Below, in pieces: positions 17,396 to 47,886 of a DNA stretch of 64,000 nucleotides. The DNA comes from an uncultured Myxococcales bacterium (lineage in GTDB: Bacteria > Myxococcota_A > UBA9042 > CAIXZC01), in the NCBI GenBank assembly GCA_964626565.1, contig CAZVFX010000003.1, positions 45,906-109,905 of the forward strand, written 5' to 3'. Each line of letters begins with the position of its first letter. Positions within the stretch are counted from its first letter, which is position 1. The notes under the pieces were generated by a model that searched no databases, had not been told where the DNA came from, and worked only from the letters and a program-made list of their open reading frames with translations. A program made the translations under genes and the position numbers.

Positions 17396-20300
17396 CTAGT
17401 CAGGTTGGCAGGAGCCGGGGTTGCCCGGTTCGCAGTGAGCGTCGGGATCGCATTGGGAATCGTAGGTACACATGTTGGCGCAAGCGGGGGGCAACTGGTC
17501 CACCTGGCCGTTGCAGTGAACCGCCTTGTAGAGGCCGCAGTCGTCGCTTTCCACCGATTGATCGCAGCCCGCATCGTCGCCGACGATCACAGTGCCGCAA
17601 ACCGACAGCTCGCACGTGGCGTCCTGGCGTTCCCCTTCACACAAGGGGGGAGAGATGCACTCCGACGGGCTGGCGTATTCGGCCGGACAATCCCCGGCGA
17701 CAAAACAGCAGTCCCCCGTCTCACAACAGAAGCCGTTTTGACAGTAGCCGGAAGTGCAATCGCCGTTTTCATCGCAAGTTTTTCCATCAGCGAGGTCAGC
17801 CAGGCAGTGGCCACCATCGCAGTGGGCTAAGGCGGTGCACTCCTCGTCTACCAGGCAGGCGACAGGGCAGGAAGGCGGTTGCTGGTCGCCGTCCCCGGAG
17901 CAGTAGACCGGATCGTAGAAGCCACAATCCAGGGCCGGGGACTGGCCGTCACACGCGGAGTCGTCGGCCACCTCCAGGCTGACGCAAACGTTGGCCTGGC
18001 AGGCCGCTTCGAGCCTGGAACCCTGGCAGGTTTGCGGATCCTGGCAGGTCGCCGATTCCGAGTACTCTCCGGGACAGTGGTTCGCCAACGCGCAGCAATC
18101 TCCCGAGGAGCAGCAGAATCCGTTCTGACAATGGAAGGACTGACAGTCGGAGTCCTCGTCGCAGGCGGCGCCATCACCCAAATCGGCAAGGCAGGCGCCA
18201 TCGCAATGAGCGCTCGCGTCGCACTCGTCGTCACCTAGGCAAACCGTGGGGCAAAGCGGTTGCTCCTGTTGCACACTGCCGTTGCACACCACCGAAAGAA
18301 ACGGCCCGCAGTCATGGGCTTCGGTCCACCAGCCACACCCGGAATCGTCTTCCGCTTCGAGGCTGCCGCATACGAAGTTGTCACAGGTTGCATCCACGCG
18401 GTGCCCCTGGCAGCCGGCCGCGTCGTCACACGCCGGGTACTTCTTGTATTGCCCGGGGCAGCCCGCGGCCGAAAGGCAGCAATCACCGCTATCGCAGCAG
18501 ATTGCGTGGTTACAGTGGCCGGAGTTGCAGTCGGAGTCCTCGTTGCACGACGCTCCGTCCGGAAGGTCGCCGAGGCACACCCCGTCACAATGGGCGCCCG
18601 GGTCACACTCGTCATCCGCCAGGCACTCCAGCGGGCACAACGGGGAGTCCTGGTCTTCTTCCCCCGTGCAGAAAAGGTCAAGGTACGCGCCGCATCCCGC
18701 CGCGTTCACTTGCTGCGTGCACGCGGAGTCATCTGCTACGATATCGGACCCACATACGAAGTCGGCGCACGTCGCGTCCACCCGCTGCCCCTGACAATCT
18801 GCGGGCCACAGGCAACCGGGAAGTGAGGAGTAGTCCGGCGGGCACTCAGCGGCATCGATACAGCAGTCGCCGCTCTGGCAGCAAATACCTGCCGAGCAGT
18901 GTCCGGACGTGCAGTCGGAGTCCTCGTCACACTCCAGGCCGTCGCCGACATCCGGAACGCAGATGTTCTGCCCGGGTCCCGGGTCGCAATGGGCGCCGGG
19001 ATCGCAATGACCGTCGGCCTGGCATTCTTCCGGACAGGCCGGACCGGGCTGCGAAACCTCACCGGTGCAGAGCACGGGCAGAAACAAACCGCAATCGTCT
19101 GCCGTCACATCTTCGGTACAGCCCGAGTCGTCGTCGACGGCCAGTTCCCCGCACTGGTGGTTCGTACAAACCGCATCGACCCGCTGCCCCTGGCACGCGG
19201 CAGGCTCTTCGCACTGAGGCGAGGCGGAGAACTCCGGTGGACAGTTCGAAGCCGTTGCGCAACAGGCGCCTTGCGCACAGCAATAGCCGTTACCGCAGTG
19301 GCCACCGGCGCAGTCGGAATCCTCGTTGCACTCCAGCCCGTCGTCAATGTCCGGCTCACAGACACCGTCGCAATGAGCCTGGTCGTCGCACTCGGAATCC
19401 CACTGGCAGGCCTCGGGGCAACCCGGGGCAGGTTGATACTTGGCGCCGGTGCAATAGACATCGGCAAACAACCCGCAATCCCCGGCCAGCACCAGAGGAC
19501 CGCACGCACTGTCGTCAAGCACCAGGTCAGACACGCAAATGAAGTTGCTGCATCCGCGGTCCTGCCGGGTGCCCTGGCAGCTCTCAGGGGTCACGCACAC
19601 CGGCGGGCTGTCGTACTCCGGCGGACAGTGGTAGTTGAACTGGCAGCAATCGCCAGAGGCACAGCAGAAACCGTTCTGGCAGTGTCCGGAGATGCAATCG
19701 CTCGCCTCGTCGCAGGAAAGACCATCGGTGAGGTCGGGCTTGCAAATGGAATCGCAGTGATAGTCGGGCGCGCACTGCGAGTCCTCACCGCACGTTTGCG
19801 AACATTCGGGCTCCGGTTGTGCCGGCTCGCCGGTGCAATGGAGGTCTGGAAACGGTCCGCAGTCGTTGGCCAGCAGGGCAATATCGCACCCGGAATCGTC
19901 GTCAACGTCGGCGCTGCCGCACCGGCTATCTTCACACACCGCGTCGACCCTGTGTCCCTGGCACGAAGCAACATCGTCGCACACCGCAGCGGCCCAGAAC
20001 TCATCAGGGCAGTCCACGGCCAGTGAGCAGCAGACATCCGAGGCGCAGCAGTAGCCGTTGGCGCAATAGCCGGATTCGCAGTCAGAGGCTTCGTCGCACT
20101 CGGCGCCGTCCTGAGCGTCCGGAAGGCACGTTTCCCCCCCCTCCAGGCCGGCAGGATCGCAATGTGCTCCGGGGTCGCATTCTTCGTCTCCGACGCAGTT
20201 GGTGGGGCACTCAGGCTTCTGCTGGTCCTGGAACGCAGCGCACATGACCGGGAGGAACAGACCACAATCGTCAACCACGTTGAGGATATTGCAAGCGCTG

Positions 20301-23227
20301 TCGTCGTCGAAGGTCACGCTCTCGCAGGTTGCCTGGGTGCACGCGGCGTCAATACGAAACCCCTGACAGGAGCCGGGGTCGGCACATTTGGGAGGTGTGG
20401 AGAAGGAGTCGGGACAGCTCGACGCCTGGTTGCAGCAGACGCCTTCGCTACAGCAGTATCCGTTGTCGCAATGGCCGGAAATGCAGTCGCTGGGCTCGTC
20501 GCACACGGTGCCGTCCACCTGGTCCGCAACACAGGTCTTGGCTCCGGGGCCCACGGGTGGATCGCAGTGAAATCCCGGGGAGCAGATATCGTCGTCGGAG
20601 CAGTTCAGTGGACAGGCCGGTGCGGGCTGATACTCTTGTCCGGAGCAGTAGCTGGGCAAGTAACTCCCGCACTCCAGCGCCAGCACGTCGGGGCCGCATC
20701 CCGTGTCATCCCCGAGGGTCGCGGTTGAGCCGCACTGGAAACCCTCGCAAAACGCGTCGATGCGGATCCCCTGGCAATCGTCCGGGATCACGCAAAGTGG
20801 AGCCGTTGCGTATTCCGCCGGGCAATCCGCGACCTCGACACAACAGTCTCCGGACCCGCAGCAAAAACCGTTCTGGCAATGTCCCGACATGCAGTCACCA
20901 TCCTCATCACAGGAATATCCGTCGGGAAGGTCCGGCTTGCAAACGTGCTGCTCAGCGTCCGCGGAAGGGTCGCAGTGGGCATCCGGGCTGCAGTCGTCGT
21001 CCACATCACACCCTGCAGAGCATGGAGCAGACAACTGAGCCGGCTGACCGGTGCAATATTGCGAAGGATAAGGAGCGCAGTCTTTCGCCAGCATTCCGGC
21101 ACTACATCCGGAGTCATCGTCGATGGGGCCGATAGAACCGCAGATGTACATTTCGCAGGTGGCATCCATGCGATGGCCCTGACAGGAAAAGGACTCCTGG
21201 CACGTGGGCGTAAGAGAGTATTTGTCCGGGCACTGGTCAGCCTTGAGGCAGCAATCGCCGAAAGCACAGCATACCCCTGCGCTGCAATGGTCGGAGAGGC
21301 AGTCGGTGGCCACGTCGCACGGGCCGCCATCATCCTGGCGCGGTTCGCACAGCCCCTCCTTGCAGGTAAACCCCGCTTCACAGTCGCTCTGATCAATGCA
21401 TGAGGCCGGGCACAGGGGCGGAGCCTGAGTCTCGTCACCGTTGCAGAATAGCTCACCATACGGCCCACAATCCACCGCCGGCTCTTCAGCGACACAGGCG
21501 CTGTCGTCGGGTATGCCGGGAAGAGCAGAGCAGCTATTCTCGACACACGCTGCGTCGGTGCGTGTACCCTGGCAGAGTCCGGGCTCGTCGCAGGCGGCTG
21601 GCGACGAGAAAAGCTCGGCGCAATCGTCGTCATCGTCGCAGCACAACCCGTCGAGGCAACAGAGACCTCCCTCACAGTGGGTCGAAAGACAATCGCTGTC
21701 TTCGTCGCAGGAGAAGCCATCTTCGAGGTCCGGCTTGCAAACGTAGTCGCAGTGAAAACCCGGGTCGCAGTCGAGGTCGTCAGCGCAGCCGTTGGAACAG
21801 GCCGGAAGAGCCTGCTTCTCCAGACCGTTGCAGTGAACCGGGGGATAGGCCCCGCACTCGTTGGCGAGGGTCTGTTCGTCGCACCCGGAGTCGTCGGGTT
21901 GGACCGGTCCGGTCTGGCACATGTTGTTGACGCACTGAGCATCCTGCCGGTGCCCCTGACACACTTCCGCATCGTCGCACACCGGCTGGAGCCAATGGTC
22001 ATCCGGGCACAGGGCCGCGTCAAAACAGCAGTCTCCCGCCTGGCAACAGACGTTGTGAGCACAGTGGCCGGAGTTGCATTGAGGGTCGGTGTCGCAAACC
22101 GCACCTTCGGGGAGGGCTGGCACACACTGACCATCCTGGTTACAAAACGAGCCACCTGCGCAGCCGCCGTCGTCTTCGCAATCGGTAAGGCAGGCGCCGA
22201 ACGCGCCGATCTTGTCACAAGCGAACAGCCCGCAAGAAGCGGTGCCGGCTTCGACGCACTGCCCATCAACACACGCCTCGCCGCCAACCATGTAGAACTC
22301 CACCCCCTCCTGAAGGCAGAAAGGAGGGGCACAATTGGAGGCTGCCTCATCCACGAGGCCATCGCAGTCATCGTCCACCCCGTTGCAAACTTCGAGGGAG
22401 GCGACGTTAAACGGCTCACAAGCCCCGATGCCGGTGGCCAGGCAGGGGCGAAACCCGGGGCACGTCCCGAACTCGTTGCTCGTTTCGCAAGGCAGTTCCT
22501 TGCCTTCCTCACCGGGCAGGCAAAGGCAGTTGCCGGAAGGCGGTGCGCACAGACCCTGGATTGCCCCTTCCTGGTGGCAGTCAAGGCCGTTGGCGCAGGC
22601 ACCCTCATCGTCGCACTGGTGCAAGAGCACGTGAGCCCCGTCCAGTTGAGCGCACAAGACATTGTCGAACGGGGGCGGCAGGGCCGGGTCGCAAGGCTCG
22701 CAGAAACCCACCAGAGAGGGCACGCACAAGTCCTCATCGTCGAGGGACCAGCACTGCCAATCCGGGGGACAGACCTCATCGCAGATGGTGGTGCACACCC
22801 CACCGAGGGGGGTAGCGAGGCATTGCCCCGGATCGCAATCTTCGTCGGATTCGCACAGTTCACCAAAGGGGAACTCGACTGCCACTTCCGTCTCGGCCTC
22901 GCCTTCCGCATCGGCTTCGGTTTCCGAAACGTCTCCGGCATCAGCGGAACCGGCTTCGGCGTCGGACAAGTCCGGAGCGATCAGATCGACCTCGCCGGAC
23001 ACATCGTACAACTCCGGCCCGACATCGACCGTCTCCGGGGCAACCGCGCCGTCCGGTTTCAGGTCCGTCGCCAACTCGGATTCGACATCGGCCAAGGCCA
23101 ACTCCCCGCCCGCATCGAGCAGGTCGATTCCGCCGCCGACCGAAGGTGTCGAACAATGGGTGAGAGAGGTGAGGCAGAGAACAAGGCTAATCAATCGCAG
23201 GCGCATGGGCGCTCCTTTCGCGCACAA
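17396..23227 (-). CDS. Giant (about 1940 aa) secreted cysteine-rich protein G2 with about 12 tandem ~105-aa Cys repeats; the probable start is the internal M (MRLRLISLVLCLTSLTHC)
   Basis: It has the conserved N-terminal Cys module (ELCESDEDCDPGQC...) plus a MopE-like motif CNGVDDDCDGLVDEA. About 12 repeats follow, each with DCxSGHCxNGxCC...CQGxRxDAxC...DDSxC...CPxxCxxDxxCDPGAHCD. Confidence 0.8.
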   Translation of the reverse strand: MCAKGAPMRLRLISLVLCLTSLTHCSTPSVGGGIDLLDAGGELALADVESELATDLKPDGAVAPETVDVGPELYDVSGEVDLIAPDLSDAEAGSADAGDVSETEADAEGEAETEVAVEFPFGELCESDEDCDPGQCLATPLGGVCTTICDEVCPPDWQCWSLDDEDLCVPSLVGFCEPCDPALPPPFDNVLCAQLDGAHVLLHQCDDEGACANGLDCHQEGAIQGLCAPPSGNCLCLPGEEGKELPCETSNEFGTCPGFRPCLATGIGACEPFNVASLEVCNGVDDDCDGLVDEAASNCAPPFCLQEGVEFYMVGGEACVDGQCVEAGTASCGLFACDKIGAFGACLTDCEDDGGCAGGSFCNQDGQCVPALPEGAVCDTDPQCNSGHCAHNVCCQAGDCCFDAALCPDDHWLQPVCDDAEVCQGHRQDAQCVNNMCQTGPVQPDDSGCDEQTLANECGAYPPVHCNGLEKQALPACSNGCADDLDCDPGFHCDYVCKPDLEDGFSCDEDSDCLSTHCEGGLCCLDGLCCDDDDDCAELFSSPAACDEPGLCQGTRTDAACVENSCSALPGIPDDSACVAEEPAVDCGPYGELFCNGDETQAPPLCPASCIDQSDCEAGFTCKEGLCEPRQDDGGPCDVATDCLSDHCSAGVCCAFGDCCLKADQCPDKYSLTPTCQESFSCQGHRMDATCEMYICGSIGPIDDDSGCSAGMLAKDCAPYPSQYCTGQPAQLSAPCSAGCDVDDDCSPDAHCDPSADAEQHVCKPDLPDGYSCDEDGDCMSGHCQNGFCCGSGDCCVEVADCPAEYATAPLCVIPDDCQGIRIDAFCEGFQCGSTATLGDDTGCGPDVLALECGSYLPSYCSGQEYQPAPACPLNCSDDDICSPGFHCDPPVGPGAKTCVADQVDGTVCDEPSDCISGHCDNGYCCSEGVCCNQASSCPDSFSTPPKCADPGSCQGFRIDAACTQATCESVTFDDDSACNILNVVDDCGLFLPVMCAAFQDQQKPECPTNCVGDEECDPGAHCDPAGLEGGETCLPDAQDGAECDEASDCESGYCANGYCCASDVCCSLAVDCPDEFWAAAVCDDVASCQGHRVDAVCEDSRCGSADVDDDSGCDIALLANDCGPFPDLHCTGEPAQPEPECSQTCGEDSQCAPDYHCDSICKPDLTDGLSCDEASDCISGHCQNGFCCASGDCCQFNYHCPPEYDSPPVCVTPESCQGTRQDRGCSNFICVSDLVLDDSACGPLVLAGDCGLFADVYCTGAKYQPAPGCPEACQWDSECDDQAHCDGVCEPDIDDGLECNEDSDCAGGHCGNGYCCAQGACCATASNCPPEFSASPQCEEPAACQGQRVDAVCTNHQCGELAVDDDSGCTEDVTADDCGLFLPVLCTGEVSQPGPACPEECQADGHCDPGAHCDPGPGQNICVPDVGDGLECDEDSDCTSGHCSAGICCQSGDCCIDAAECPPDYSSLPGCLWPADCQGQRVDATCADFVCGSDIVADDSACTQQVNAAGCGAYLDLFCTGEEDQDSPLCPLECLADDECDPGAHCDGVCLGDLPDGASCNEDSDCNSGHCNHAICCDSGDCCLSAAGCPGQYKKYPACDDAAGCQGHRVDATCDNFVCGSLEAEDDSGCGWWTEAHDCGPFLSVVCNGSVQQEQPLCPTVCLGDDECDASAHCDGACLADLGDGAACDEDSDCQSFHCQNGFCCSSGDCCALANHCPGEYSESATCQDPQTCQGSRLEAACQANVCVSLEVADDSACDGQSPALDCGFYDPVYCSGDGDQQPPSCPVACLVDEECTALAHCDGGHCLADLADGKTCDENGDCTSGYCQNGFCCETGDCCFVAGDCPAEYASPSECISPPLCEGERQDATCELSVCGTVIVGDDAGCDQSVESDDCGLYKAVHCNGQVDQLPPACANMCTYDSQCDPDAHCEPGNPGSCQPD

Positions 23228-23278
23228 ACCAAACCAGAGAGTATTATCCTATCGGAAGATGCGGAGAGCAAATTAGTC

Positions 23279-23356
23279 CCTCCCCGGGCTAACGGCCGGA
23301 GCTACTGGCTTGCGTGCCCCACGGGGGCCTGATTCGGATTTTGGAGTTCTAGAAGA
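23279..23356 (-). promoter_or_regulatory. Copy 2 of the conserved structured intergenic element, upstream of giant gene G2
   Basis: CCTCCCCGGGCTAACGGCCGGAGCTACTGGCTTGCGTGCCCCACGGGGGCCTGATTCGGATTTTGGAG aligns with copy 1. Confidence 0.5.
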
Positions 23357-24841
23357 TCAGCAGTCAGCCGGGCAGCTCGCCATGGTTTCCGTCGCGCCGC
23401 AGACGCCGTCGCCGCAGGGGCCGCAATCATCCGCACAGTTGGCCGGCGTCTCGGGGCCGTCGCAAATGGCATCGCCGCAGGAAGCTGTGCAGTCCTGGGC
23501 ACAGGATGCGAGGGTCTCGGAGAGAGCACATATCCCGTCCCCGCACGACGCACAATCCAGGGGGCAACTGTTGGCAGTCTCGCCCGGATTGCATGCACCA
23601 TCCCCGCACGGAGGCGTACAGTCAATCGGGCAGGTACCCACGGTTTCCCCTGCGTCACATGCGCCGTTAGCGCAGGTATCCTCACAATCCCAGGGGCATG
23701 CCACGGAGTCTTCCGTCAGGTTACACACGCCGTCGCCACAATCGCCACAATCGGCGGGGCAGGCTGCTGCGTTCTCATCGGCCTGGCAGATGGAATCACC
23801 GCAGAAAGGCATGCAGTCGAGGGGACAGGTGCCGGGTCCATCCTCGTGGACCCCGCATATGCCGTCGCCGCAAGGGCCGCAGTCGTGGGGACACAACGGC
23901 ACCGATTCGGTGAGCTCACATTTGCCGTTTCCGCAGACGCCGGCACAGCCGGGCACCTCCGCGCCGGGCACACAAACACCCACCTCGCAGTGGTCTCCGG
24001 CAGTACACTGATTGCCGTCGTCGCAGGGCACACCATTGAGGGGTTGGTGAACACAACCGCCGAAGGCATCACAAGTGTCGGAGGTGCACGCCTCACCATC
24101 ATCGCAGTCGATGGTGGTCCCGGCAACGCACTGCCCGTTGATACAACTATCGCCGGTAGTGCACGGGTCCCCGTCCTCACATTGGCCTTCCAGAACGGTG
24201 TGCATGCAACCTTCCACCGGGTCACAATAGTCATCTGTGCACCAGTTGTTGTCGTCACAGGTGTTGGCCTGGCCGCCAAGGCACTCCCCCGCTTCGCACT
24301 GCTCGCCCACGGTGCACGGGTCCCCATCCTCGCACAAGTTGGTGTTGGGAGGGTTGATGCACCCTTCATCGGGAGCACAAAGGTCGTCGGTGCAGGGGTT
24401 GTCGTCCGCGCAATCAAGAGGCTCGGTGCCCGGCTTGCAGGCCCCTTGTTCGCAGAAGTCGCCGTTGGTACAGGGGTTGCCGTCGTCGCACTCACCTTCC
24501 GACAGGCTGAACGCACACTCTCCGGAAGGGGTGCAATACCCTTCGGTGCACGGGTTATCATCGCCACAGCCGGTGTCCACGACACACGTGCCGCCACAAC
24601 CGTCGTGGTCGCCGCAGCTCTTATCTTCACAGTCGGGAACACACTCACCCTCGTCGGGTTTCACGTCGGCGCCGCCCGTGTCACTGCCCCCACCGGTGTC
24701 AACCGTAACATCATCACCGGCAACTTCCGTCGCAACTTCCGGTGTGAAGCCGGCGTCGTCATCGCCGCCACCGTCACCTCCGCCGCAGGCAGAAAGGGAA
24801 AGAACGAGTGCTGCGCTCCACCAGATGACTGCTCCTCGCAT
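23357..24841 (-). CDS. Cysteine-rich secreted lipoprotein (494 aa) with CxDGNPCTxDxC repeats followed by CGDGxC...E...CPxDC repeats
   Basis: Signal AALVLSLSACGGGDG; about 8 CDDGNPCT-type repeats and about 8 CGDGICG...CP(L/A)DC repeats. Same architecture as ORF 32835..34469. Confidence 0.75.
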   Translation of the reverse strand: MRGAVIWWSAALVLSLSACGGGDGGGDDDAGFTPEVATEVAGDDVTVDTGGGSDTGGADVKPDEGECVPDCEDKSCGDHDGCGGTCVVDTGCGDDNPCTEGYCTPSGECAFSLSEGECDDGNPCTNGDFCEQGACKPGTEPLDCADDNPCTDDLCAPDEGCINPPNTNLCEDGDPCTVGEQCEAGECLGGQANTCDDNNWCTDDYCDPVEGCMHTVLEGQCEDGDPCTTGDSCINGQCVAGTTIDCDDGEACTSDTCDAFGGCVHQPLNGVPCDDGNQCTAGDHCEVGVCVPGAEVPGCAGVCGNGKCELTESVPLCPHDCGPCGDGICGVHEDGPGTCPLDCMPFCGDSICQADENAAACPADCGDCGDGVCNLTEDSVACPWDCEDTCANGACDAGETVGTCPIDCTPPCGDGACNPGETANSCPLDCASCGDGICALSETLASCAQDCTASCGDAICDGPETPANCADDCGPCGDGVCGATETMASCPADC

Positions 24842-24866
24842 GGCAATCCTCCCGTTTGATCTTTGC

Positions 24867-27800
24867 CTATCTTACAAAAATTTCGAGGTCGTTGAACAGA
24901 ACATATTCAGGGCTCGATTGATCTTCGACGCCCCACCGTAGGATATTGGACTCCGCCACCGGGGTGTTGAAGGTGTAATACTTGGACGTGCCGCCGGAAT
25001 TCCAGTCCCCGCCCCACTGCCCCCCGGTCTTGAGCACCGTTCCGGGAGTGCCGAACATAACATACCCGTTGGAGCCGTTGCCCGTCTTTCCCCAGGAGCC
25101 GGCGTTCCAGTTGTCGTCGTGATGGATGCCGCTTCCGCCGTAACCGCGCCAGCTCCCCCTCACTTCCGAAAAGGTGAACATAGTGTCGATTTCGAAGTAC
25201 ACCAGCTTGTCCCCGCCGCCGTTGTTGCTGCCGATGGCGAAAGAAGGGTTGTCCCCGTCGGTGACCACCGTATAGCCCGGTCCCACGATCACCTTGGCCT
25301 CATGTGGGAAATGCTGATAGCTGTTCACTCCGCCCACGTCCCCGGTGCTGGAAATCAGGGTCCACCCTCCCCCGTTGGTATCCATGTCGCAATAAACCTC
25401 GAAGGGATCGACACCGCCGATGCCGTCCGGATCCAGGGTGTACAACCCGCTCTCAGCGTTGGGGCTCTCGTCCAGGAAGTCTTTGCAGGACGAGATGGTG
25501 CAGCCGTTGTCCGCGATACCGCTGCAATCGTCGTCCAGGCCGTTGTCGCAGATCTCCTCGGCCTCATGGTTAATGTCAGGGTCGGTTGGAGCACAGTCGG
25601 TGATGTCGGGATCGTTGTCGTTGTCGTCATCCGGATCCACGCAGTCGGCCAGTCCGTCGGCGTCGCTGTCCGGGAAACCGTCGTCGATGCCGCCGTTGCA
25701 GTTGTTGTCCAGACCGTCGCATTCCTCAGGCTGCGAACCTTCCATCGGATCACATTCCACCTCCTGCCCTTCTGCACAAAGAGGCGTGGAGTGGAGGCAT
25801 TCTCCAAGGCCGCAGGAGAGCATCCCCAGCCCCTCATCAAGGAGGCCGTCACAGTCGTTGTCAACCCCGTCACATTCCTCTGCCACCGCCCCTTCCTTTG
25901 GATCACACACCTGGGGGACCCCGTCCGCACAGTTCTGGACGATGTGGGTGCATACTCCCTGGCCGCACGAAGTCGACCCGAGTCCGTCATCCTCCAGACC
26001 GTTGCAGTCGTTGTCCAGGCCGTCGCAAATCTCCGGGGCAACGCCCAGGAAGGGGTCGCACACCGCGATCTTTCCATCAACGCAATAATCCTGCTCGTGA
26101 AAACACTCGCCTTTGCCGCACTGCACCGAACCGAGGTCTTCGTCCACCGCGTCATCGCAATCGTTGTCCTGGCCGTCACAGACCTCGGCCGCCGCCCCTT
26201 CCATGGGATTGCACACCTGCGGCACACCGCCCACGCACACCGGCACCGTGTTCTCGCACGCGCCCAGACCGCAGGTAATCTGGCCCAGATTCTCATCCAC
26301 CTGTCCGTCGCAATCGTTGTCGATTCCGTCGCATATTTCTACACCAACACCCTCCTCCGCGTTGCAGTCTTGTGGGATGCCACCGACGCAATTCTGAACG
26401 GTGTGAAGGCAAACGCCGAGCCCGCAGGTGGTGGTGCCCAGGTCTTCATCGACCAGGCCGTCGCAGTCGTTGTCGTTTCCATCACATTTTTCGAGCTCAA
26501 CACCCTCCATCGCCTCGCAGACTTGAGGGATACCACCGACGCAATTGTCAACGGTATGATTGCACACACCCAGGCCGCAGGTGGTGGTGCCCAAATCCTC
26601 ATCCACACTATCATCGCAGTCGTTGTCAAGGCCGTCGCACACTTCCATGGCCGCGGGGTTGATGGTCGCATCGAGGGGAGCGCAGTCCGCGTCGTCGGAA
26701 TGACCGTCGTTGTCGTCATCAAGATCGGTACAGTCTTTGAGCCCATCCAGGTCGCTATCGTTAAAACCCTCGTCGATGAGGCCGTTGCAGTTGTTGTCTA
26801 CGCCGTCGCAAACCTCCTGGGCGCCGGGATTCACGTTGGGGTCGAGCGGAGCGCAGTCTTCTGCGTCGGGGGTGCCGTCGCCGTCCTTGTCCCCCTCACA
26901 CGCATCCCCCACGCCGTCATTGTCGCTATCCTCCTGCCCCGGGTTCTCTACACCAACACAATTGTCCGCGCTGTCTTCCACGCCGTCTCCGTCCAGGTCG
27001 TCGTCGCACGCGTCGCCCAGACCATCCCCGTCGATGTCCGACTGTTGCGTGTTTTTTACGCCAACACAGTTGTCCGCGCTATCGGGTATTGCATCTCCGT
27101 CAGCGTCGGGGTCGCAAGCATCGCCCAGGCCATCCTCATCCAGGTCCTCCTGGCCCGGATTCTCCACGCCAACACAATTATCCGCACTGTCGGCGACGCC
27201 GTCGTCGTCGGCGTCGTCGTCCACGCAGTCAGCCACACCATCTCCATCGATATCCGGGAATCCGTCGTCCACATCCCCGTCACAATCGTTGTCCAGGCCG
27301 TCGCAGATTTCGGCCGCACCAGGGAACACCGACGCATCAGTCGGCGCACAGTCGGCGCCATCAACGACGCCATCGTTGTCGTCATCTTCGTCCACGCAGT
27401 CCTTCCACCCGTCCGCGTCGGTGTCGGTGGACCCTTCATCCACTATGAAGTTGCAGTTGTTGTCCTTGCCGTCGCACAACTCCTCGGCGCCGGGATGGAT
27501 GTCCTGGTCGAAAGGAGCACAGTCCTCCGCATCCGAGGTCTGGTCGTTGTCGTCGTCCAGGTCGCAGACGTCGCCAAAATTGTCCAGGTCATTGTCCTCC
27601 TGCCCCGGGTTGTTCACGCCAACACAGTTATCCGCGCTGTCGACGATGCCATCTCCATCTTTGTCGGTCTCCATGCAGTCAGCGATCCCATCGTCGTCGG
27701 TATCTTCGAAACCCTCGTCGGTGGCGCCGTCGCAATCGTTGTCCTCGCCGTCGCAGCTTTCCGCGTGCGCCTCTTCTCCTTCGCACACCAGTTTGCCCTG

Positions 27801-28682
27801 GTCGCACGCATACTCTCCGGCACAGGTGCCGAACTCGTTGGCCACCAGGCAGGCGTCGCCCCCGGTGTCCTCGTCAATTTCGCCGTCGCAGTCGTCGTCC
27901 TGACCGTTACACTCGTCCACTTCCGGCTCAGGTGCCGAACAAGGGGTCAGGCCATCCGCCATGCACTGGCGGTCGCCGAAACATCTACCCCACTCGTTTT
28001 CCGCGAAACAATCAGTGGCCGCACCTTCATCAATGTACCACTGGTTGCACTCACATTCTCCCTGGGACCGCGTGCACTGAGTCACCGCTCCGCCGGCCAC
28101 ATCTTTGCCATCGCCACAGTAGTAGCCTGCCGGGCAATCTTCGTCATCGTCACAATTGGCGCCACAGAAGTTTCCACCTTCCCCGTAATCTACGCAGGAC
28201 TGCCCGGCGTCGACGCCGTTGGTCCAACATTCGTCGTTCTGCGTACACGGCCGGCACAGGTCAACCATGGTAGGTACGCAAATGAACACCTGGTCCGGCA
28301 TGCTCGGAGGGTGCAGGAAACAACTCCAGTCGAAGGGGCACTCTTCCACGCAGGAGATGGTACACTGCATCCCGTCCGCGGTCTGGATACAGAATCCCGA
28401 GTCGCAGTCAGCCGCTCCCTCGCACGGATACCCCGCCGCGCCTGGCTCAGGCCCGCACGCATCCCCGCACACGTCCGCCAACGCTTCTCCGAAGTCCCAA
28501 CCGTCGGTTTTCGCGTCTTCGTCCAGCGACTCAGGCTCCACCCCGGCGTCGTCGGCCACCTCAGCCGGTGCAAAGCCGTCCCCGGCATCGACACCACCAA
28601 GGTCCTCAGACACCGTAACCGCACCGTCGCCACAAGCCATCGACAAGACAACCGCTGCAAAAAGAACAATCCCTATTCTCAT
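24867..28682 (-). CDS. Giant (about 1270 aa) secreted lipoprotein G3 with TSP3 repeats, MopE-like repeats and a C-terminal fibrinogen-like domain; the start is the internal M (MRIGIVLFAAVVLSMACGDG)
   Basis: The N-terminal module is nearly identical to G1 (GYPCEGAADCDSGFCIQTADGMQCTISCVEECPFDW...). It carries TSP3 DxDxDGxxDxxDNC repeats and six CGLGxC...CDGxDNDCDGxxDE repeats. The C-terminus CKDFLDESPNAESGLYTLDPDGIGGVDPFEVYCDMDTNGGGWTLI matches the fibrinogen C-terminal domain signature. Confidence 0.8.
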   Translation of the reverse strand: MRIGIVLFAAVVLSMACGDGAVTVSEDLGGVDAGDGFAPAEVADDAGVEPESLDEDAKTDGWDFGEALADVCGDACGPEPGAAGYPCEGAADCDSGFCIQTADGMQCTISCVEECPFDWSCFLHPPSMPDQVFICVPTMVDLCRPCTQNDECWTNGVDAGQSCVDYGEGGNFCGANCDDDEDCPAGYYCGDGKDVAGGAVTQCTRSQGECECNQWYIDEGAATDCFAENEWGRCFGDRQCMADGLTPCSAPEPEVDECNGQDDDCDGEIDEDTGGDACLVANEFGTCAGEYACDQGKLVCEGEEAHAESCDGEDNDCDGATDEGFEDTDDDGIADCMETDKDGDGIVDSADNCVGVNNPGQEDNDLDNFGDVCDLDDDNDQTSDAEDCAPFDQDIHPGAEELCDGKDNNCNFIVDEGSTDTDADGWKDCVDEDDDNDGVVDGADCAPTDASVFPGAAEICDGLDNDCDGDVDDGFPDIDGDGVADCVDDDADDDGVADSADNCVGVENPGQEDLDEDGLGDACDPDADGDAIPDSADNCVGVKNTQQSDIDGDGLGDACDDDLDGDGVEDSADNCVGVENPGQEDSDNDGVGDACEGDKDGDGTPDAEDCAPLDPNVNPGAQEVCDGVDNNCNGLIDEGFNDSDLDGLKDCTDLDDDNDGHSDDADCAPLDATINPAAMEVCDGLDNDCDDSVDEDLGTTTCGLGVCNHTVDNCVGGIPQVCEAMEGVELEKCDGNDNDCDGLVDEDLGTTTCGLGVCLHTVQNCVGGIPQDCNAEEGVGVEICDGIDNDCDGQVDENLGQITCGLGACENTVPVCVGGVPQVCNPMEGAAAEVCDGQDNDCDDAVDEDLGSVQCGKGECFHEQDYCVDGKIAVCDPFLGVAPEICDGLDNDCNGLEDDGLGSTSCGQGVCTHIVQNCADGVPQVCDPKEGAVAEECDGVDNDCDGLLDEGLGMLSCGLGECLHSTPLCAEGQEVECDPMEGSQPEECDGLDNNCNGGIDDGFPDSDADGLADCVDPDDDNDNDPDITDCAPTDPDINHEAEEICDNGLDDDCSGIADNGCTISSCKDFLDESPNAESGLYTLDPDGIGGVDPFEVYCDMDTNGGGWTLISSTGDVGGVNSYQHFPHEAKVIVGPGYTVVTDGDNPSFAIGSNNGGGDKLVYFEIDTMFTFSEVRGSWRGYGGSGIHHDDNWNAGSWGKTGNGSNGYVMFGTPGTVLKTGGQWGGDWNSGGTSKYYTFNTPVAESNILRWGVEDQSSPEYVLFNDLEIFVR

Positions 28683-28897
28683 CCTCTCCCCCTGCTTCAC
28701 CCTCGAACGCCAGCATGCGCCACATGTTCGCGCACGCAGCATGCGTTGCCAAATTTTCTGTTGGGCCCGGGGCTCACTGTTTCCGTTGCAATCCGCGTGC
28801 AAGGCCACCTATTCTGGTAGCGTCGCATTTCAGGAAGAGGTTGAGGGAAGACCGAGAAGGAACAGTTGTAGGGCCGCCGGACAAGCAAGGAGTCTCA

Positions 28898-29727
28898 TGA
28901 CCACATCCGACAACCACGAATCTCAGTACATGCACGGAGCAAACGCTGCCGAGCAGGAACGCCTCGAGCAGATGGGGACAATCCTGCCGGGGATCGAGTT
29001 CCTGCCTGAACTGAAACCGGGAATGCGCATTCTCGAAGTTGGCTGCGGAACGGGGAGCCTGGCGCGCCAGGTGGCCCGCAAAGTCACTCCCGGGGGAACG
29101 GTTGTCGGTGTTGACCGGCAGCAGGCGCAACTACACAGGGCCAGGCAACTGGCGGACGGAGAAGGGGTCGAGAACCTGTCCCTTCACCTGCAGGAGGCAA
29201 CAAAGCTGGACTTCCCCGATGGGCAGTTCGACGGTGCGTACTGCCGGTTCGTCGTCGAGCACGTGCCCGATCCTGTGGTCCTGGTCCAAGAAATGATGCG
29301 GGTGGTCAAACCCGGGGGGTGGGTGTGCTGCTTTGAATGGGAGAACGGCTGTTCGGTCATGTATCCGGACTGTCCCGCAGTGCAAACCGTGTGGCAGGCC
29401 GTGTACGATTTTCAACTCGGCCTCGGAGGCGACCCCCATATTGCCCGCAAACTGTACGGCATCCTGAACCGGGCGGGACTGACCGACGTTCAGGCCAGCG
29501 GACGCGCATGGAGCATCACGTCGAAAGACAGGGACAAGCTGCAAGTCTACGTTGGCAGCGCCCGGGAGATCATTCGCCAGACATGCGGCGGACTTCCGTC
29601 GGAGAAACAGGTTTCGCAAGAGTTGCTGCAACAGGCTGACGCCGAATATGAGCAACTGTTGACTCATCCGGAAGCCTTCGCGATGGAAGGCTACGTGTAC
29701 GCCACCGGCACCATCGCGCTCGGCTAA
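28898..29727 (+). CDS. Class I SAM-dependent methyltransferase; the start is internal to the track ORF 28219..29727
   Basis: ILEVGCGTGSLARQVA (motif I) ... DGQFDGAYCRFVVEHVPDP ... VVKPGGWV. Confidence 0.75.
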
Positions 29728-32834: not shown

Positions 32835-34469
32835 TTGAAAGTCCTTGCGACCGCGGCTGCCGTAGCCTGTTTGCTGGCCGGATGCGTATCCAAGCCGGAC
32901 CCCTGGACTCCGTTCAGGGATACCGGAGAGCCTGACCTGACTCGGACGGAAGAGATTGCCGGAGCGGACGTTGGGGCCGAACTGCTCGACGCCGAGACGG
33001 AAGCCACCGCACCCGATCTGTTCGTTCCGGACGAGCAGAAGTTCGAGATCTGTGCGCCTGAGTGCATTTCCGAAAATCCCTGCACCGATGCCTACTGTGA
33101 AGCCGGGGAGTGCGTGCACCAGCCGGTTGATGGCTCATGCGACGACGGCGACCCATGCACCGAAGGAGACACGTGCGAGGCCGGTGAATGCAAACCAGGC
33201 TCCGACCAGTTCGAATGCGACGATTTTAACTCGTGTACGGACAATCTGTGCATCGCCGGAGTTGGGTGCCAGTACGATCCCAACGCCGCGGATTGCGACG
33301 ACGAGGATCCGTGCACCGTCGGTGACAAGTGCGAAGGCGGGGAGTGCAAGGCTGGACCCGACCCGCTGGCCTGCGACGACGGCAACGACTGCACTTTTAA
33401 CTCCTGCGCAGCCGGCGAAGGGTGCAAGTACGAGCCGAAAGATCAGGCCGCGTGCGACGACGGCTTCACCTGCACCAACAAGGACACCTGCCAGGGCAAG
33501 GTGTGCGTCGGCGAGCAGGTATCCTGCAACGACAACAACCCGTGTACGGTAGACACCTGCGACCCCACCGTGGGCTGCGTTTTCGAACCGGCCACCGGGG
33601 CTGAATGCGATGACGGCAACGAGTGCACCAAGCAGGACGCGTGTATCGGCCCTATGTGCATCGGCCCTCAGTTTGCTGATTGGATCCTTGAGTGCAAGGA
33701 GGATGCGTGCGGCAACGGCATCTGCCAGGGCGATAACAGCGCGACCAACTGCCCCACTGACTGTGGCCCTTGCGGCGACGGGGTGTGTGGACACCACGAG
33801 GTGGTGGAAGGAGTTGCCGGCGGCCTTTGTCCCATGGACTGCCTTCCCCCCTGCGGCGACGGAGAATGCGAGGCCGGCGAATTGGAAGGATGCCCCGTTG
33901 ACTGTGGCGGCTGCCCGGACGGCTATTGCGGTCTCTACGAAACGCCGGAATCGTGCCCGGACGACTGCCCCACTGCGTGTGGAGACGGTGTGTGCACCCC
34001 CGGGGAGAGCTTGCTGCTGTGTCCCACCGACTGCAAAACCCCCTGCGGAGACAAGCTTTGCGCCCAGGGCGAGAGCCCCTACAACTGCCCGGTGGACTGC
34101 GGTCTCTGCCCCGACGGCTACTGTGCCGCGGACGAAGACGTAGAATCGTGCCCATGGGATTGCGACAAACCGTGCGGCAACGGGGTCTGCGACGGCGGCG
34201 AAGATTTTGACAGTTGTAAGATTGACTGCGGCTATTGCGGAGACGGAGTGTGCGGCAAGACCGAGAACCACTCCCAGTGCCCGGGCGACTGCCCGGATGG
34301 GTGCGGGGATGGCCTCTGCGTCGAACCTGAGACGCTCGAGAACTGCGTAATCGACTGTGGCGAGATACCCGACTGCGTCGACAAAGACTGCGGCGGCGAC
34401 GGCTTCGGCGGACAGTGCGGCCAGTGTCCGGCGGGCACAGAGTGCAACGCCGAAGGGCAGTGTGTCTAG
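32835..34469 (+). CDS. Cysteine-rich secreted lipoprotein (544 aa), TTG start, with CxDGDPCTxGDxC repeats followed by CPxDCGxCGDGxC repeats
   Basis: Signal MKVLATAAAVACLLAGCVSKPD. Same two-part architecture as ORF 23357..24841. RBS AGGAGGG upstream. Confidence 0.75.
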   Translation: MKVLATAAAVACLLAGCVSKPDPWTPFRDTGEPDLTRTEEIAGADVGAELLDAETEATAPDLFVPDEQKFEICAPECISENPCTDAYCEAGECVHQPVDGSCDDGDPCTEGDTCEAGECKPGSDQFECDDFNSCTDNLCIAGVGCQYDPNAADCDDEDPCTVGDKCEGGECKAGPDPLACDDGNDCTFNSCAAGEGCKYEPKDQAACDDGFTCTNKDTCQGKVCVGEQVSCNDNNPCTVDTCDPTVGCVFEPATGAECDDGNECTKQDACIGPMCIGPQFADWILECKEDACGNGICQGDNSATNCPTDCGPCGDGVCGHHEVVEGVAGGLCPMDCLPPCGDGECEAGELEGCPVDCGGCPDGYCGLYETPESCPDDCPTACGDGVCTPGESLLLCPTDCKTPCGDKLCAQGESPYNCPVDCGLCPDGYCAADEDVESCPWDCDKPCGNGVCDGGEDFDSCKIDCGYCGDGVCGKTENHSQCPGDCPDGCGDGLCVEPETLENCVIDCGEIPDCVDKDCGGDGFGGQCGQCPAGTECNAEGQCV

Positions 34470-34531
34470 CTTCTGCCGGGCCGGGCGAACTCCGTTCCCC
34501 GGTGAACTCAACGGAATCCATAGGGTGTAAC

Positions 34532-37500
34532 ATGCGCGTTCCTCTTCTTCTTCTACCCCTGCTCCTCTTGTGCGGATGTCCTTCCGGCTCTCCCACCGTA
34601 GAACCGGGCGATGACTCCATCGACGCGATTGAGATTCTCGACGCTTCGCGCGCTGACGCCAATCTGCTCGACCGGGCTGTCCCCGAAGACCGGGGCGGGG
34701 GCGACCGCGGGCAGACCGAAGTTGCCGCGTGTGAACCCGGCAACGCCCAGGCCGGCTGTTCCTGCGCCGGCGACGAAGACTGCGCCACCGGCAGTTGCAC
34801 CCTTCACTTCGGTTCAAAGGTATGTGCAGCACCTTGTGCCGCGGGCTGCCCCGAAGGGTGGGAATGCGGAGATGACGACGGAGCCTCAGGCCTCTGCTCC
34901 TCCCTCTTCCCGACGCTGTGCCTGCCGTGCTTTGCCAGCGACCAGTGCGGAGAAAATGACGCACTCTGCGCGCTTCACCCCGACGCCACCGGCGCGTTTT
35001 GCGGGGCAGCCTGCGATGAATTCTCCCCCTGCCCGGCCGGTTGGTCGTGCAAACCAGTGGACACCATCGAGGGCGAAAAAAGCCACCAGTGCATCGTAAA
35101 AGCAGGCACTTGCCTGTGCTCCGATTACGCGGTGGACCAAGGGCTGGAGGCCTACTGCGAAACCAGCAACGAATTGGGCGCGTGCGCGGGCCTTCGTCAG
35201 TGCGTCGACGGAGGTCTGTCCCCTTGCGACGCGCCCGAACCGCAGGACGAGAGTTGCGACGGACTGGACAACGACTGCGACGGCGAGGTGGACGAGGAAA
35301 CCACCTGCGACGACGGGGACGCTTGCACCGAAGACGACTACTGCGACCAGGGAGAGTGCACAGGGCAAGCGGTGGAATGTGACGACGGCGACCTTTGCAC
35401 CACTGACAGTTGCCTCCCCGAATCGGGCTGTTCGTTCGAGCCCAATGAATTGGCTTGCGAGGAAGATGGCGACCCGTGCACCGAAGACGTCTGCGTCGAT
35501 GGAGCATGCTCGCACCCGCCGGGCAACGACGGAATGCCCTGCGACGACCTGGACGACTGCACCACCGGTGATCACTGTTTCGAAGGTGCATGCATTTACG
35601 ACGACTACCTGGACATGTGCAAGCTGGTGTGCTCGGACGGTCTGTGTATCTTCCCCGAGAACCCGGATGATTGCCCTGAAGATTGCGGCCCGTGCGGGGA
35701 CGGGGTGTGCGGTTTCCACGAAAACGGACCCGACGGGGGAACCTGCCCCATGGACTGCCTGACCCCCTGCGGCGACGGGCTGTGTGAGTACGGCGAAAGC
35801 CCCGAATATTGTGTAGTGGACTGCGGCGGCTGCGGCGACGGACTGTGCGGCCTTCATGAGGACGGGGTGGTCTGCCCCAACGACTGTCCGCCCGCCTGCG
35901 GCAACGCAGTTTGCGAGCAGGATGAAACCATTGAGATTTGTACGGTTGACTGCATTCCGCCGTGCGGGGACGGCCTCTGTGTAGATTTTGAAAATCCGTA
36001 CAACTGTCCCACCGACTGCTCACTTTGCGACGACGGCGTCTGCGGCATTTCGGAGGACCAGGAATCGTGTCCGCAGGACTGCATGGTCATTTGCGGAAAC
36101 GGACTGTGCGAAGGTGGGGAAAACCCGGAAGAATGTGCGGTGGATTGCGGCTGGTGCGGAGACGGGGTGTGCGGGTTCGCTGAAACAGGATCCAACTGCC
36201 CCGCAGACTGTTTCGTAGGCTGCGGCGACAACCTGTGCGGCCCCGACGAAGACGGCCTGAGCTGCCCCTTGGACTGCACGGTAGATGCAGACGGGGACGG
36301 CTTCGAGGACCTGGTGGACAACTGTCCCTGGCTGTTCAACCCGGAACAGATAAACAGTGACAACGACGCGTCGGGGGATATGTGCGACCTGGACGACGAC
36401 AACGACGGCGACCTGGACGCGAGTGACTGCGCCCCCCTGGACCCGGAAGTTTCGTACCTGGCTGACGAACAATGCGACGGCGTGGACAACGACTGTGATG
36501 ACGAAGTCGACAACGAGGCCGAATGCGCACCCGGCCTCGAATGCCTGGGCGGCGACTGCATCTGCCCGCCCGACTGCGAGGGCAAAGAGTGCGGACCCGA
36601 CGGATGCGACGGGGAATGCGGCCAGTGCCCGGAAGAGCAGTTCTGCCTGGCCGACGGAAGCTGCCTGTGCGTGCCCGACTGCGTGGGCAAAGGGTGCGGC
36701 GACGACGGCTGCGAAGGTAGCTGCGGAGAGTGCACCGGATTCCAGGAAATATGCTTGGATTTCAGTTGCGTCTGCTCCCCCGACTGCGAAGGGAAGGAGT
36801 GCGGAAGCGACGGTTGCGGCGGTCAATGCGGTCAATGTGATGCAGGCGTGGCATGCGACGAGGGTTTGTGCGTCGCTTGCGTCGATGACGGCTCCGGCGG
36901 CTGCGACGACGGCGAGATCGTTGAATTCCCGGTGAGCGATGAGAGCGGAGCAGACCAGAGAGACCCGGCCGTAGCCACCCTCAGCGGCGGTGGTTTTGTT
37001 GTCTCGTGGACCGATTCGAAAGAGGATGGTCCGGTCGCCGAAGAGATTTACGCCCGTGTTTACGGCCCCTCCGGGCAGCCGTTGGCCCAGTCCTTTCTCG
37101 TGAACAGCGGACAGCAAGGTGGCGGCCAGTTCAACTCCACCGTCACGAGGATCCAGGATGGCACCTTCGCCATTGGCTGGGACGACCTGGGCGCCGGGGC
37201 CCCCGCGGGCATGAGGGCCCGCGGGTTCGAGGCGGATGGCACCCCGGTGGCAGCTTCTTTCGCCGGGACAAATCTACCCGCAGTGCCGCCCGTCTACCCC
37301 GCAGCAGGGGAAGCGTGGGAGAATACGTTTGTGATGGTGTGGCAAAATGAACATCCGGACACACCTCAGCGGTACGTTTACATCCTGCAGTTCGACACCA
37401 TGGGCATACTTTACGACAGCGATGCCCAGGTTTCGCAGACGCCGGTGGGAGCGGACGCCAAGGTCGCACTGTCGTCAAACGGAATTGGCGACGGGGCGAT

Positions 37501-47100: not shown

Positions 47101-47154
47101 CAACAAACCTCCTTTCGCTGCCGGACGTAATGTAGCCAAGACAGGGTGCTTAAG

Positions 47155-47838
47155 TCAAAGCTTCTTGAGCATCTTCAGTGCGTATGCACGCGCATCTTCA
47201 GTTTCCCACTCACGGTTGGGAGGAGGGGTGCTTTCGTCGATCACCTTCCGGTACGCGACCCGCGCATCGGCCTTCCTGCGCACCTTGGCGTAAGCCGCGG
47301 CCAGTTCCAGGAGGACTTCCGGATCCCGGGGTGCGAGGCTGGCGGCTTTCTCCAGCATCTTCACCCCTTTCTTCTTGTCGCCCCAGGAGATCAGGGGCGG
47401 CAATTCACGGTAGAGCACCCCTTTCATCATGTACGCCTCAAAACGGTCCGGCTCATCCGCTATCAAATCGTCGATGTACCCTCTGATCTTCCTAGCTTCC
47501 CGCAGCGCCGCAGGGATCCCTTCGGCCATGCGCGCCTGAAACTGGTTGAGCACCCACCAGTACCGGGCATCGTAGTCGTGGGGGTCCATGCGCATGATCC
47601 GGCCGGCTGCGGCCACCCCCTGAGATGCTACCTCTCGCTTCCGGCCGTGGTCCTTGAGACGATGGGCGCAGTAGTATTGCGTAATCGCGCAGAACAACTG
47701 AACCTCCCGGTCTTCCGGGTAGGTGGCCGCCAGGCCCGCAGCACCTGCGGCAGCCGCCCGGTGCATCTCCAGATTGTCGCGTTTGGCGTAGATCTCCATC
47801 AACTCCTGCCACTCATGCTCCGACACCTTGCGGGTCAT
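47155..47838 (-). CDS. Cytoplasmic paralogue of ORF 46360..47100; the start is the internal ATG (MTRKVSEHEW) with RBS AGGAGGAG
   Basis: About 45% identity to the neighbour across FEAYMMKGVLYRELPPLISWGD...WETEDARAYALKMLKKL. No signal peptide. Confidence 0.55.
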   Translation of the reverse strand: MTRKVSEHEWQELMEIYAKRDNLEMHRAAAAGAAGLAATYPEDREVQLFCAITQYYCAHRLKDHGRKREVASQGVAAAGRIMRMDPHDYDARYWWVLNQFQARMAEGIPAALREARKIRGYIDDLIADEPDRFEAYMMKGVLYRELPPLISWGDKKKGVKMLEKAASLAPRDPEVLLELAAAYAKVRRKADARVAYRKVIDESTPPPNREWETEDARAYALKMLKKL

Positions 47839-47886
47839 GGGCTCCTCCTGGTTTGCCGCACCGAGATTAGCGCACCAGGTGTGCTG

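Follow-up and report, generated by a model that had tools for sequence, protein, structure and literature searches.

A fibrinogen-like module joined to a predicted all-beta tail at the C-terminus of a giant putative lipoprotein from an uncultured Myxococcales bacterium

How much of an animal-type fibrinogen-related domain (FReD) can a bacterial lipoprotein carry? The question is raised by a 64,000-nucleotide stretch of DNA from an uncultured Myxococcales bacterium (GenBank assembly GCA_964626565.1, contig CAZVFX010000003.1, positions 45,906 to 109,905; hereafter the window). Here, an initial annotation had placed a FReD over the last ~250 amino acids (aa) of a giant lipoprotein, fused to thrombospondin type-3 (TSP3) and MopE-like repeats. 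We found that a fibrinogen C-terminal core is present and significant at the C-terminus of this protein (30.2 bits with PF00147, 74 bits with NF040941, and matches to PDB sequences). However, the FReD match covers aa 1108-1157 only. The remainder of the head is a tail that is predicted to be all-beta, while homologues with the same stalk and module carry unrelated tails.

The gene and its parts are as follows, with residues numbered along the 1313-aa open reading frame (ORF) that begins at GTG; head residues 1-210 correspond to aa 1104-1313.

24867..28808, minus strand: ORF of 1313 aa from GTG (ORF list)
24867..28682, minus strand: gene for the 1271-aa lipoprotein, from the ATG at M43 of the GTG ORF; stop codon at 24867-24869
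28632..28682, minus strand: putative signal peptide and lipobox, MRIGIVLFAAVVLSMA followed by C, aa 43-59 (read by eye from the sequence)
27774..28472, minus strand: Cys-rich N-terminal (base) domain, aa ~113-345, common to four other giant ORFs of the window
25500..27773, minus strand: stalk of 12 MopE-like Cys-rich repeats and 6 thrombospondin type-3 Ca-binding repeats (Pfam, motif map)
24870..25499, minus strand: C-terminal head of 210 aa, aa 1104-1313
25344..25499, minus strand: constant 52-aa 'GGGWT' module, aa 1104-1155 (NF040941, PF00147, PF01410, hhalign, AlphaFold2)
24909..25343, minus strand: class-specific tail, aa 1156-1300, predicted all-beta (alignment A1, AlphaFold2)
24870..24908, minus strand: terminal beta-strand EYVLFNDLEIFVR, aa 1301-1313 (AlphaFold2 strand 198-209)

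Gene callers start the protein at M43, and the residues that follow, MRIGIVLFAAVVLSMA and then CGDG, match the lipoprotein signal pattern by eye. The identical 1271-aa protein (P0001) is on record, called on the 94-kb Joint Genome Institute (JGI) metagenome contig Ga0118727_1000549. Pfam bore out the fusion to both repeat types: PF11617 (MopE-like) scored 114.9 bits in 12 stretches and PF02412 (TSP3) 64.3 bits in 6. The stalk also contains six tandem 51-aa repeats (aa ~741-1046; motif map). The range originally assigned to the domain, 24867-25650, contains the head at 24870-25499, but its upper ~150 nt (25500-25650) belong to the last MopE-like repeat.

We determined how far the homology to FReDs reaches. 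Pfam Fibrinogen_C (PF00147) passed its gathering score (cut-off 22, E 4.9e-7), but the match is restricted to profile positions 5-51 of 221. It spans about one quarter of the head and does not extend over the full ~220 residues of a domain with A, B, and P subdomains. The NCBIfam model NF040941 (GGGWT_bact) matched at all of its positions (1-46 of 46), with 74.2 bits for the whole protein (cut-off 30, E 5.9e-21) and 76.7 bits for the C-terminal 260 aa alone. The E-values of these two matches rule out a chance motif. ORF 24867..28808 (minus strand) contains the string quoted in the initial annotation, CKDFLDESPNAESGLYTLDPDGIGGVDPFEVYCDMDTNGGGWTLISSTGDV, letter for letter at aa 1108-1160. The module comprises a helix, a beta-hairpin, the C1108-C1140 pair, a DPDG...D loop, and the GGGWTLI strand, with GGGW at 1146-1149; no second in-frame copy of the GGGW motif occurs in the 64-kb window.

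Comparison of the 210-aa head with PDB sequences by phmmer retrieved intelectin-1 (3.4e-7), tachylectin-5A (TL5A; 1.8e-6), fibrinogen beta (1e-5), angiopoietins, and ficolins, in alignments that span head residues ~4-60 only. A profile of 16 full-length heads that are 28-88% identical to that of the window (alignment A1) extended further, aligning head residues 4-115 with 9-114 of ficolin-2 and 4-104 with 48-145 of TL5A at E 1e-8 to 2e-10. Since the A1 profile reaches residue ~105-115, the homology plausibly takes in the A-subdomain and, within the B sheet, the first half. A profile of the tail only (A3) matched no solved protein, FReDs included (best E 0.69, a GH45), and Pfam gave no match to the tail at E up to 1.

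The head has just two cysteines, C1108 and C1140, which are invariant in A1 and form the A-subdomain pair. As there are no others, the second FReD disulfide, which lies beside the ligand pocket, is absent. For the P-subdomain, which carries the Ca site, this second disulfide, and the ligand pocket, the head contains no alignable counterpart, and no FReD alignment continued past ~residue 115. As to which residues form the Ca site and pocket of this subdomain, we assumed those of ficolin and TL5A. Thus, the check on conserved Ca- and acetyl-binding residues that was proposed with the initial annotation gave a negative result; the subdomain bearing these sites is not recognisably present, rather than present with mutated site residues. 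By eye, HHDDN resembles FSTxDxDND, GGxWGG resembles GGWW, and the terminal strand ends in Arg, features that we take to be loosely colinear with those of FReDs.

AlphaFold2 (AF2) gave a confident model of the head from A1 (mean pLDDT 91.8, pTM 0.90, with all five models at 88-92). The A-subdomain disulfide pair and the GGGWT strand of FReDs are present in both A1 and the model, where the module consists of a helix at 5-11 and strands at 18-22, 33-38, and 46-50, with pLDDT 85-96 across it. After residue 64 the model is all-beta, with long hairpins spanning 98-121 and 172-193 and the final strand spanning 198-209. Searching the PDB with Foldseek returned carbohydrate-binding modules (CBMs) of families CBM16 (2ZEX) and CBM61 (2XOM), the procollagen C-propeptide (5K31, 4AEJ, and 4AE2), CBM4, the Eph ligand-binding domain (Eph-LBD), and MAM, all of them weak matches with TM nowhere above 0.45. 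Ficolin, fibrinogen, angiopoietin, tenascin, and intelectin were all missing from the top 50, and the predicted fold of the head does not superpose on solved FReDs. The proposed likeness to a ficolin FReD therefore held for the module, which is real, but not for the tail, whose predicted fold is unlike that of a FReD. Among predicted viral structures (BFVD), the best match was an uncharacterised protein of Synechococcus phage ACG-2014i (A0A0E3HEH7; TMq 0.63, E 2e-7), followed by phage tail-fibre, tailspike, and CBM-like domains.

As a control, the same pipeline was applied to a sister head class (A2, 17 sequences) from this lipoprotein family. The resulting model is of low confidence (pLDDT 56) and serves as a qualitative control only. 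Its top Foldseek matches were XEEL, intelectin-1, and lamprey lectin (E 4e-6 to 3e-5, TMq 0.46-0.52), with ficolins, tenascins, MFAP4, and fibrinogen further down, in line with the A2 sequence profile. The pipeline is thus able to recover FReD-type folds, and the head of the window differs from them. Within its tail, D1232, W1239, G1248, G1253, T1254, K1260, G1262, G1266, and R1291 are invariant in A1, and D1231, W1265, and W1292 nearly so. The Asp, Trp, Lys, and Arg positions are strictly invariant across members that are just 25-35% identical.

Of 8000 candidates scored with the full-length protein as query, at least 3780 are homologues at E up to 1e-10, the majority of them ~1220-1350 aa long and derived from metagenomes or from metagenome-assembled genomes (MAGs) labelled 'Deltaproteobacteria bacterium'. 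An exhaustive search of 1.84 billion cluster representatives with the head returned 4713 proteins at E up to 1e-3, the greater part of which match the first ~50 head residues alone, often in many copies per protein; just 10 of the best 150 match all 210 residues. Among GTDB species genomes there was one full-length head relative, a 1166-aa ORF with 64% identity in an uncultured Myxococcales MAG. A word-indexed search with the 210-aa head or A3 gave nothing at E up to 1e-3, which appears to reflect a limit of short queries and not absence, as the collection does contain proteins with 60-100% identical heads (P0001-P0008 carry the head).

Stalk and 52-aa module are found together in 109 of the 120 best homologues (~1270 aa). 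In these 109, the sequence after the module (123-204 aa) splits into at least 26 BLAST classes that cannot be aligned with one another. By hhalign, the class of the window showed no relation to 12 of the 13 other classes with at least four members, the exception being one class at 72% probability. While the N-terminal domain and stalk are 52-68% identical to those of the window's protein independent of head class, identity in the tail is either 62-65% (same class) or undetectable (other classes). Comparison of A1 with A2 by hhalign aligned residues 2-52 at 99.4% probability and nothing beyond, and in ten other classes the Pfam match to Fibrinogen_C or COLFI is confined to the initial ~50 profile positions.

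The end of the head is constant in another way. The terminal strand EYVLFNDLEIFVR closes with an aliphatic-aromatic-aliphatic-R/K pattern that recurs in otherwise unrelated tails: 97 of the 109 end in R or K, 78 have W, Y, or F at position -3, and positions -2 and -4 are mostly V, I, or L. P0123 and P0124, which bear multiple heads, repeat their units at ~200-aa intervals, and RLxYR(P/E) closes each unit just before the next module. Thus, the constant frame consists of the module plus the closing strand, and the middle is class-specific. A C-terminal sorting signal, considered for the strand ending in R or K, was ruled out because the same motif closes internal units. Three giants, P0121 (4522 aa), P0123 (3103 aa), and P0124 (2390 aa), carry 10-15 tandem GGGWT-type heads at a spacing of ~195-265 aa.

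Several head classes can occur together. At L004 2124-22149 (ENA ERZ24794647 NODE_10024), five paralogues of ~1136-1308 aa lie in a row, each with a GGGWT module, and their tails are mutually unalignable by BLAST; a gene for a PIN-domain protein sits inside the array. Another contig carries two adjacent paralogue genes, and three proteins sharing one MAG locus-tag prefix fall into three head classes. Since several classes occur on one contig or in one MAG, they are paralogues rather than just alleles.

A1-type heads elsewhere follow VWA, LamG, TIG, TSP3, and MopE modules, which are extracellular, adhesion-type contexts. The module alone is found in hypothetical proteins of cyanomyophages and in two PHROGs of unknown function. 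In the T4-like cyanophages S-RIM14 (KX349303.1, L007 2198-3274), S-ShM2, and S-SSM2, it sits mid-protein in a 358-aa hypothetical protein and is without the first Cys. A further module-only match, with 51% identity over residues 4-50, lies in the Patescibacteria MAG WFWP01000011.1 (L003 448-564). Judged by such sequence matches, the module is spread well beyond Myxococcota.

The head also bears a weak resemblance to COLFI (PF01410), the procollagen C-propeptide. The C-terminal 260 aa scored 23.1 bits with this profile, below the cut-off of 26.2, at profile positions 31-70 of 233. In Foldseek, the COLFI structures 5K31, 4AEJ, and 4AE2 held ranks 3-8 (E ~6e-4, 239-262 aligned columns), as weak matches with TMq 0.35-0.44 and a root-mean-square deviation (rmsd) of 8-11 Å. 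Distant members of the window's head class do pass the COLFI cut-off, with 48-56 bits. P0133 scores 56 bits with COLFI versus 47 with Fibrinogen_C, while P0244 scores 56 bits with COLFI and has no FReD match. The best PDB match of P0244, a relative of the same class, is the collagen III C-propeptide (E 1.6e-5); its segment TCQTLIGDHPDTEDGTYWIDPNGGSTADAFQVTCDMTT shares the pattern 'GxYW(I/V)DPNxGxxxDAxxVxCxMxT'. Through the P0244 alignment, D1126, D1128, and D1134 coincide with COLFI D59, N61, and D67, which we take to serve as ligands of Ca in the structure of CPIII. Going by the COLFI alignment, the module may therefore hold a Ca site; the third candidate position, D1134, is not conserved across A1.

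We also examined the surroundings of the gene. Five giant Cys-rich ORFs of 1313-1943 aa, including the one described here, together occupy about one third of the window:

2524-6765, plus strand
17396-23227, minus strand
24867-28808, minus strand
34415-40138, plus strand
47146-51708, plus strand

All five share an N-terminal domain of ~270-350 aa at 31-52% identity, and differ in their repeat bodies and C-termini. By tblastn against the window, aa 43-400 matched 2524-3588 at 52%, 48172-48744 at 45%, 34727-35395 at 37%, and 22346-23206 at 31% identity. A lipoprotein-like signal lies at or near the N-terminus of four of the five; the exception is 47146-51708, whose listed GTG start showed none. 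Downstream of the head, a 494-aa Cys-rich lipoprotein with Dicty_CTDC repeats begins after 25 nt, followed by the 1943-aa Cys-rich repeat protein, and no small immunity-like gene comes directly after the head. A scan of 23200-29200 for promoter and terminator signals gave none above expectation.

The 1943-aa protein (17396-23227, minus strand) consists of tandem Cys-rich repeats with the motif 'CxxDxDCxSGHCxxGxCC...CxGxRxDAxC' throughout and has zero Pfam matches. Dictyostelium-type CTDC repeats (PF00526) occur in two proteins of the window: the 494-aa lipoprotein (23357-24841, minus strand; 68 bits, E 4e-19), which also has a run of 'CGDGxC...CPxDC' repeats, and the 1520-aa ORF 47146-51708 (plus strand; 180 bits in 10 stretches). 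On the source contig (L001 13824-17006), JGI called a 551-aa and a 337-aa gene, at 21677-23332 and 23846-24859 of the window (both plus strand), which lie antisense to the 1943-aa and 494-aa ORFs, respectively. Both are probably artefacts of gene calling on the antisense strand of GC-rich repeat DNA. The C-termini of 34415-40138 and 51722-54007 (both plus strand) carry repeats of the form 'FxVNT...QxxPxVA...FVVxWxSxxQDGSxxG(I/V)FGQRF', which have no Pfam match and may be of a type undescribed so far.

On balance, we lean towards a lipid-anchored protein in which a stalk stiffened by Ca and disulfides presents a lectin-like head of the fibrinogen/COLFI/intelectin superfamily, and this head binds a glycan ligand; the structural part of this explanation is firmer than the part concerning the ligand. 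The N-terminal lipid anchor and the Cys-rich base domain would hold the ~1271-aa protein in the envelope of the uncultured Myxococcales-like bacterium, while the MopE-like disulfides and Ca-binding TSP3 repeats would stiffen the stalk and keep the head at a distance from the membrane. Of the superfamily's frame, the head would retain the N-terminal helix and hairpin with their disulfide, the strand that carries GGGWT, about the first half of the central sheet, and a last strand whose final residue is Arg. A class-specific beta-rich region would replace the ligand-binding P-subdomain, making the whole more like a CBM or a COLFI-type sandwich than a ficolin. Through the cluster of invariant Asp, Trp, Lys, and Arg residues (HHDDNW...W, GGxWGGDWN, and RW), the head may then bind an external ligand, for which a polysaccharide or glycoconjugate is the likeliest candidate. 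A glycan appears the most likely ligand because D1232, W1239, K1260, and R1291, together with D1231, W1265, and W1292, are typical of sugar-binding sites and because the fold neighbours are CBMs and receptor-binding domains of phages. Paralogues with the same stalk and module and unrelated tails would make up a repertoire of binding specificities. Against this explanation, that the lipoprotein is exposed at the surface is an assumption, the similarity to CBM-like beta-sandwiches is generic, and protein-protein or homotypic contacts are just as conceivable for the head. A ligand-binding or adhesin role, as originally proposed, is still our best guess, though not by way of a ficolin- or angiopoietin-type FReD over the whole length.

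A canonical FReD lectin with the Ca site and acetyl-group pocket of the ficolin/tachylectin type would account for the Fibrinogen_C score above gathering and for the PDB sequence matches to TL5A, ficolins, and fibrinogen. We regard it as very improbable, since these matches stop at profile positions 5-51 of 221, or at ~115 at most with the family profile, and the tail profile hits no FReD. The head also has two cysteines only, so that the P-subdomain disulfide is absent, and its all-beta AF2 model retrieved no FReD in the Foldseek top 50, whereas the sister class does retrieve them. A COLFI-like head for assembly or self-recognition would instead oligomerise, for example as a trimer in the manner of the collagen C-propeptide, ficolins, and intelectins, with the tail setting the partner chains or cells, as in a receptor for homotypic cohesion or kin recognition with TraA-like logic. 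No solved structure matches the head better over its full length than COLFI, which is also the top sequence match for distant class members. The abrupt change from a constant body to a variable head and the large number of classes recall the TraA variable domain with its Cys-rich repeats (PMC6372800), and there is a partial NCBIfam match to the cohesion protein MtsC, which arises via the TSP3 repeats. Yet the structural match is weak, with TMq 0.35-0.44 and an rmsd of 8-11 Å. The protein also lacks the interchain cysteines, the coiled-coil stalk, and the collagen helix of COLFI, and the presence of several paralogues per genome or contig points to a repertoire more than to an allelic greenbeard locus. 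We therefore consider this a minority possibility, of perhaps one chance in several.

That same sharp junction between conserved and variable sequence, with its many unrelated C-terminal tails, would also be expected if the GGGWT module marked the point where exchangeable effector domains are attached, as in polymorphic toxins, and genes for defence or toxin-antitoxin proteins (PIN, HEPN/NTase, and AbiEii) do lie near some paralogue arrays. However, the prediction places module and tail in a single compact domain (pTM 0.90), whose closing terminal strand recurs in different classes, no toxin family was matched in Pfam or NCBIfam, and heads also form 10-15 internal tandem units in other proteins. 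With the 494-aa Cys-rich lipoprotein, and no small immunity-like gene, following 25 nt downstream, a toxin-like role is the least credible that we weighed. The window's five giant Cys-rich lipoproteins share a base domain but differ in their bodies, which suggests an envelope scaffold, and the head could be a purely structural cap or a matrix component of the envelope or of an extracellular Cys-rich layer that has no specific ligand. This is improbable in our view, since invariant Asp, Trp, Lys, and Arg in the tails of members that are 25-35% identical argue for a functional site and a passive cap gives little reason for heads to have diversified while the stalk stayed constant. A glycan-binding, lectin-like head remains the explanation that we prefer.

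This is not the first bacterial FReD. Phage and bacterial proteins with a FReD have already been noted (PMC9682848). As NCBI already curates a bacterial GGGWT domain, the novelty is less than the initial annotation implied. What is new is the design of a frame plus variable tail as a paralogue repertoire in uncultured Myxococcota, and the window's head class is without a solved relative. A Fibrinogen_C match in a bacterial protein often certifies the first ~50 residues only and is therefore no basis for annotating binding sites of the ficolin type.

FReDs, intelectins, and the collagen C-propeptide are usually regarded as animal inventions. Bacteria nevertheless hold the N-terminal frame common to FReD, intelectin, and COLFI in ~4700 cluster representatives (E up to 1e-3). 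Since COLFI-like and intelectin-like heads occur inside one bacterial paralogue family, this family could be the source pool, or an ancient recipient, of three animal domain families. More speculatively, uncultured Myxococcota may possess a large multigene repertoire in which one frame, the 52-aa module and closing strand, displays unrelated ligand-binding inserts on a stalk stiffened by Ca and disulfides. It would be a bacterial counterpart of the FREP, ficolin, and intelectin pattern-recognition repertoires of animals, used for recognition of prey, matrix, or kin, and a possible origin pool; we hold this bolder idea only tentatively. If the heads are lectins, they would form a prokaryotic recognition repertoire relevant to the predation and social behaviour of Myxococcota and a source of new glycan-binding scaffolds, and would bear on the origin of FReD, COLFI, and X-type lectins.

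Comparison with known systems places the protein as follows. NF040941 ('fibrinogen-like YCDxxxxGGGW domain-containing protein') is the family name that NCBI would give it, as the first 46 residues of the head match the entire model. However, the model describes the 46-aa module only and is silent on the following ~160 residues, which form an all-beta tail here and are unrelated elsewhere. With the FReDs of animals (ficolins, TL5A, angiopoietins, tenascins, and fibrinogen beta/gamma), the head shares the A-subdomain, the first disulfide, the GGGWT strand, a unit size of ~200-220 aa, the basic end of the final strand, and a profile match to ~105-115. It differs in having no alignable P-subdomain, second disulfide, or identifiable Ca/acetyl site, and in its predicted all-beta tail, where FReDs have alpha/beta structure plus loops.

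COLFI is the best solved match that spans the whole head, and the module resembles its 'GEYW(I/V)...' segment. In contrast, COLFI has 'GETC' where the head has GGGW, and the collagen helix with Gly-X-Y, the coiled-coil stalk, and the interchain Cys pattern are all absent here, where a MopE-like repeat precedes the head. The CBM16, CBM61, and CBM4 families and the distal domains of phage tail fibres are of similar size, all-beta, and the top Foldseek matches to the tail. They differ in showing no sequence kinship, in matching at TM 0.33-0.45 as generic jelly-roll or sandwich folds, and in having no fibrinogen-type module; a search of Pfam by sequence likewise failed to place the tail in a CBM family.

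TraA and TraB, which act in kin recognition in Myxococcus, combine a lectin-like variable domain with Cys-rich repeats, and TraB contains TSP-3 repeats (PMC6372800). They are a functional analogue in the kind of host (Myxococcales), the variable domain with Cys-rich repeats, and the anchoring by lipid or sorting tag. TraA differs in its opposite orientation, as the lipobox is N-terminal and the head C-terminal here, and in its PA14 fold; the window's protein has no MYXO-CTERM, and the variation seen here is between paralogues.

In human intelectin-1 (hIntL-1), the fibrinogen-like segment (FBD) comprises residues 37-82 only (PMC9682848). The intelectins (hIntL-1, XEEL, and lamprey serum lectin) thus likewise place a ~45-aa fibrinogen-like segment before a divergent lectin body, close with an aromatic residue followed by Arg, and are the closest parallel to the head described here. 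The intelectin body, with its Ca and diol-binding site, has no sequence or fold match in the window's tail, while intelectin-1 is the best single-sequence match in the PDB, confined to head residues 4-52. The C-termini, which we take to be '...MKIRP' in FReDs and '...LLFYR' in intelectin, agree with a frame made of the module and a closing strand.

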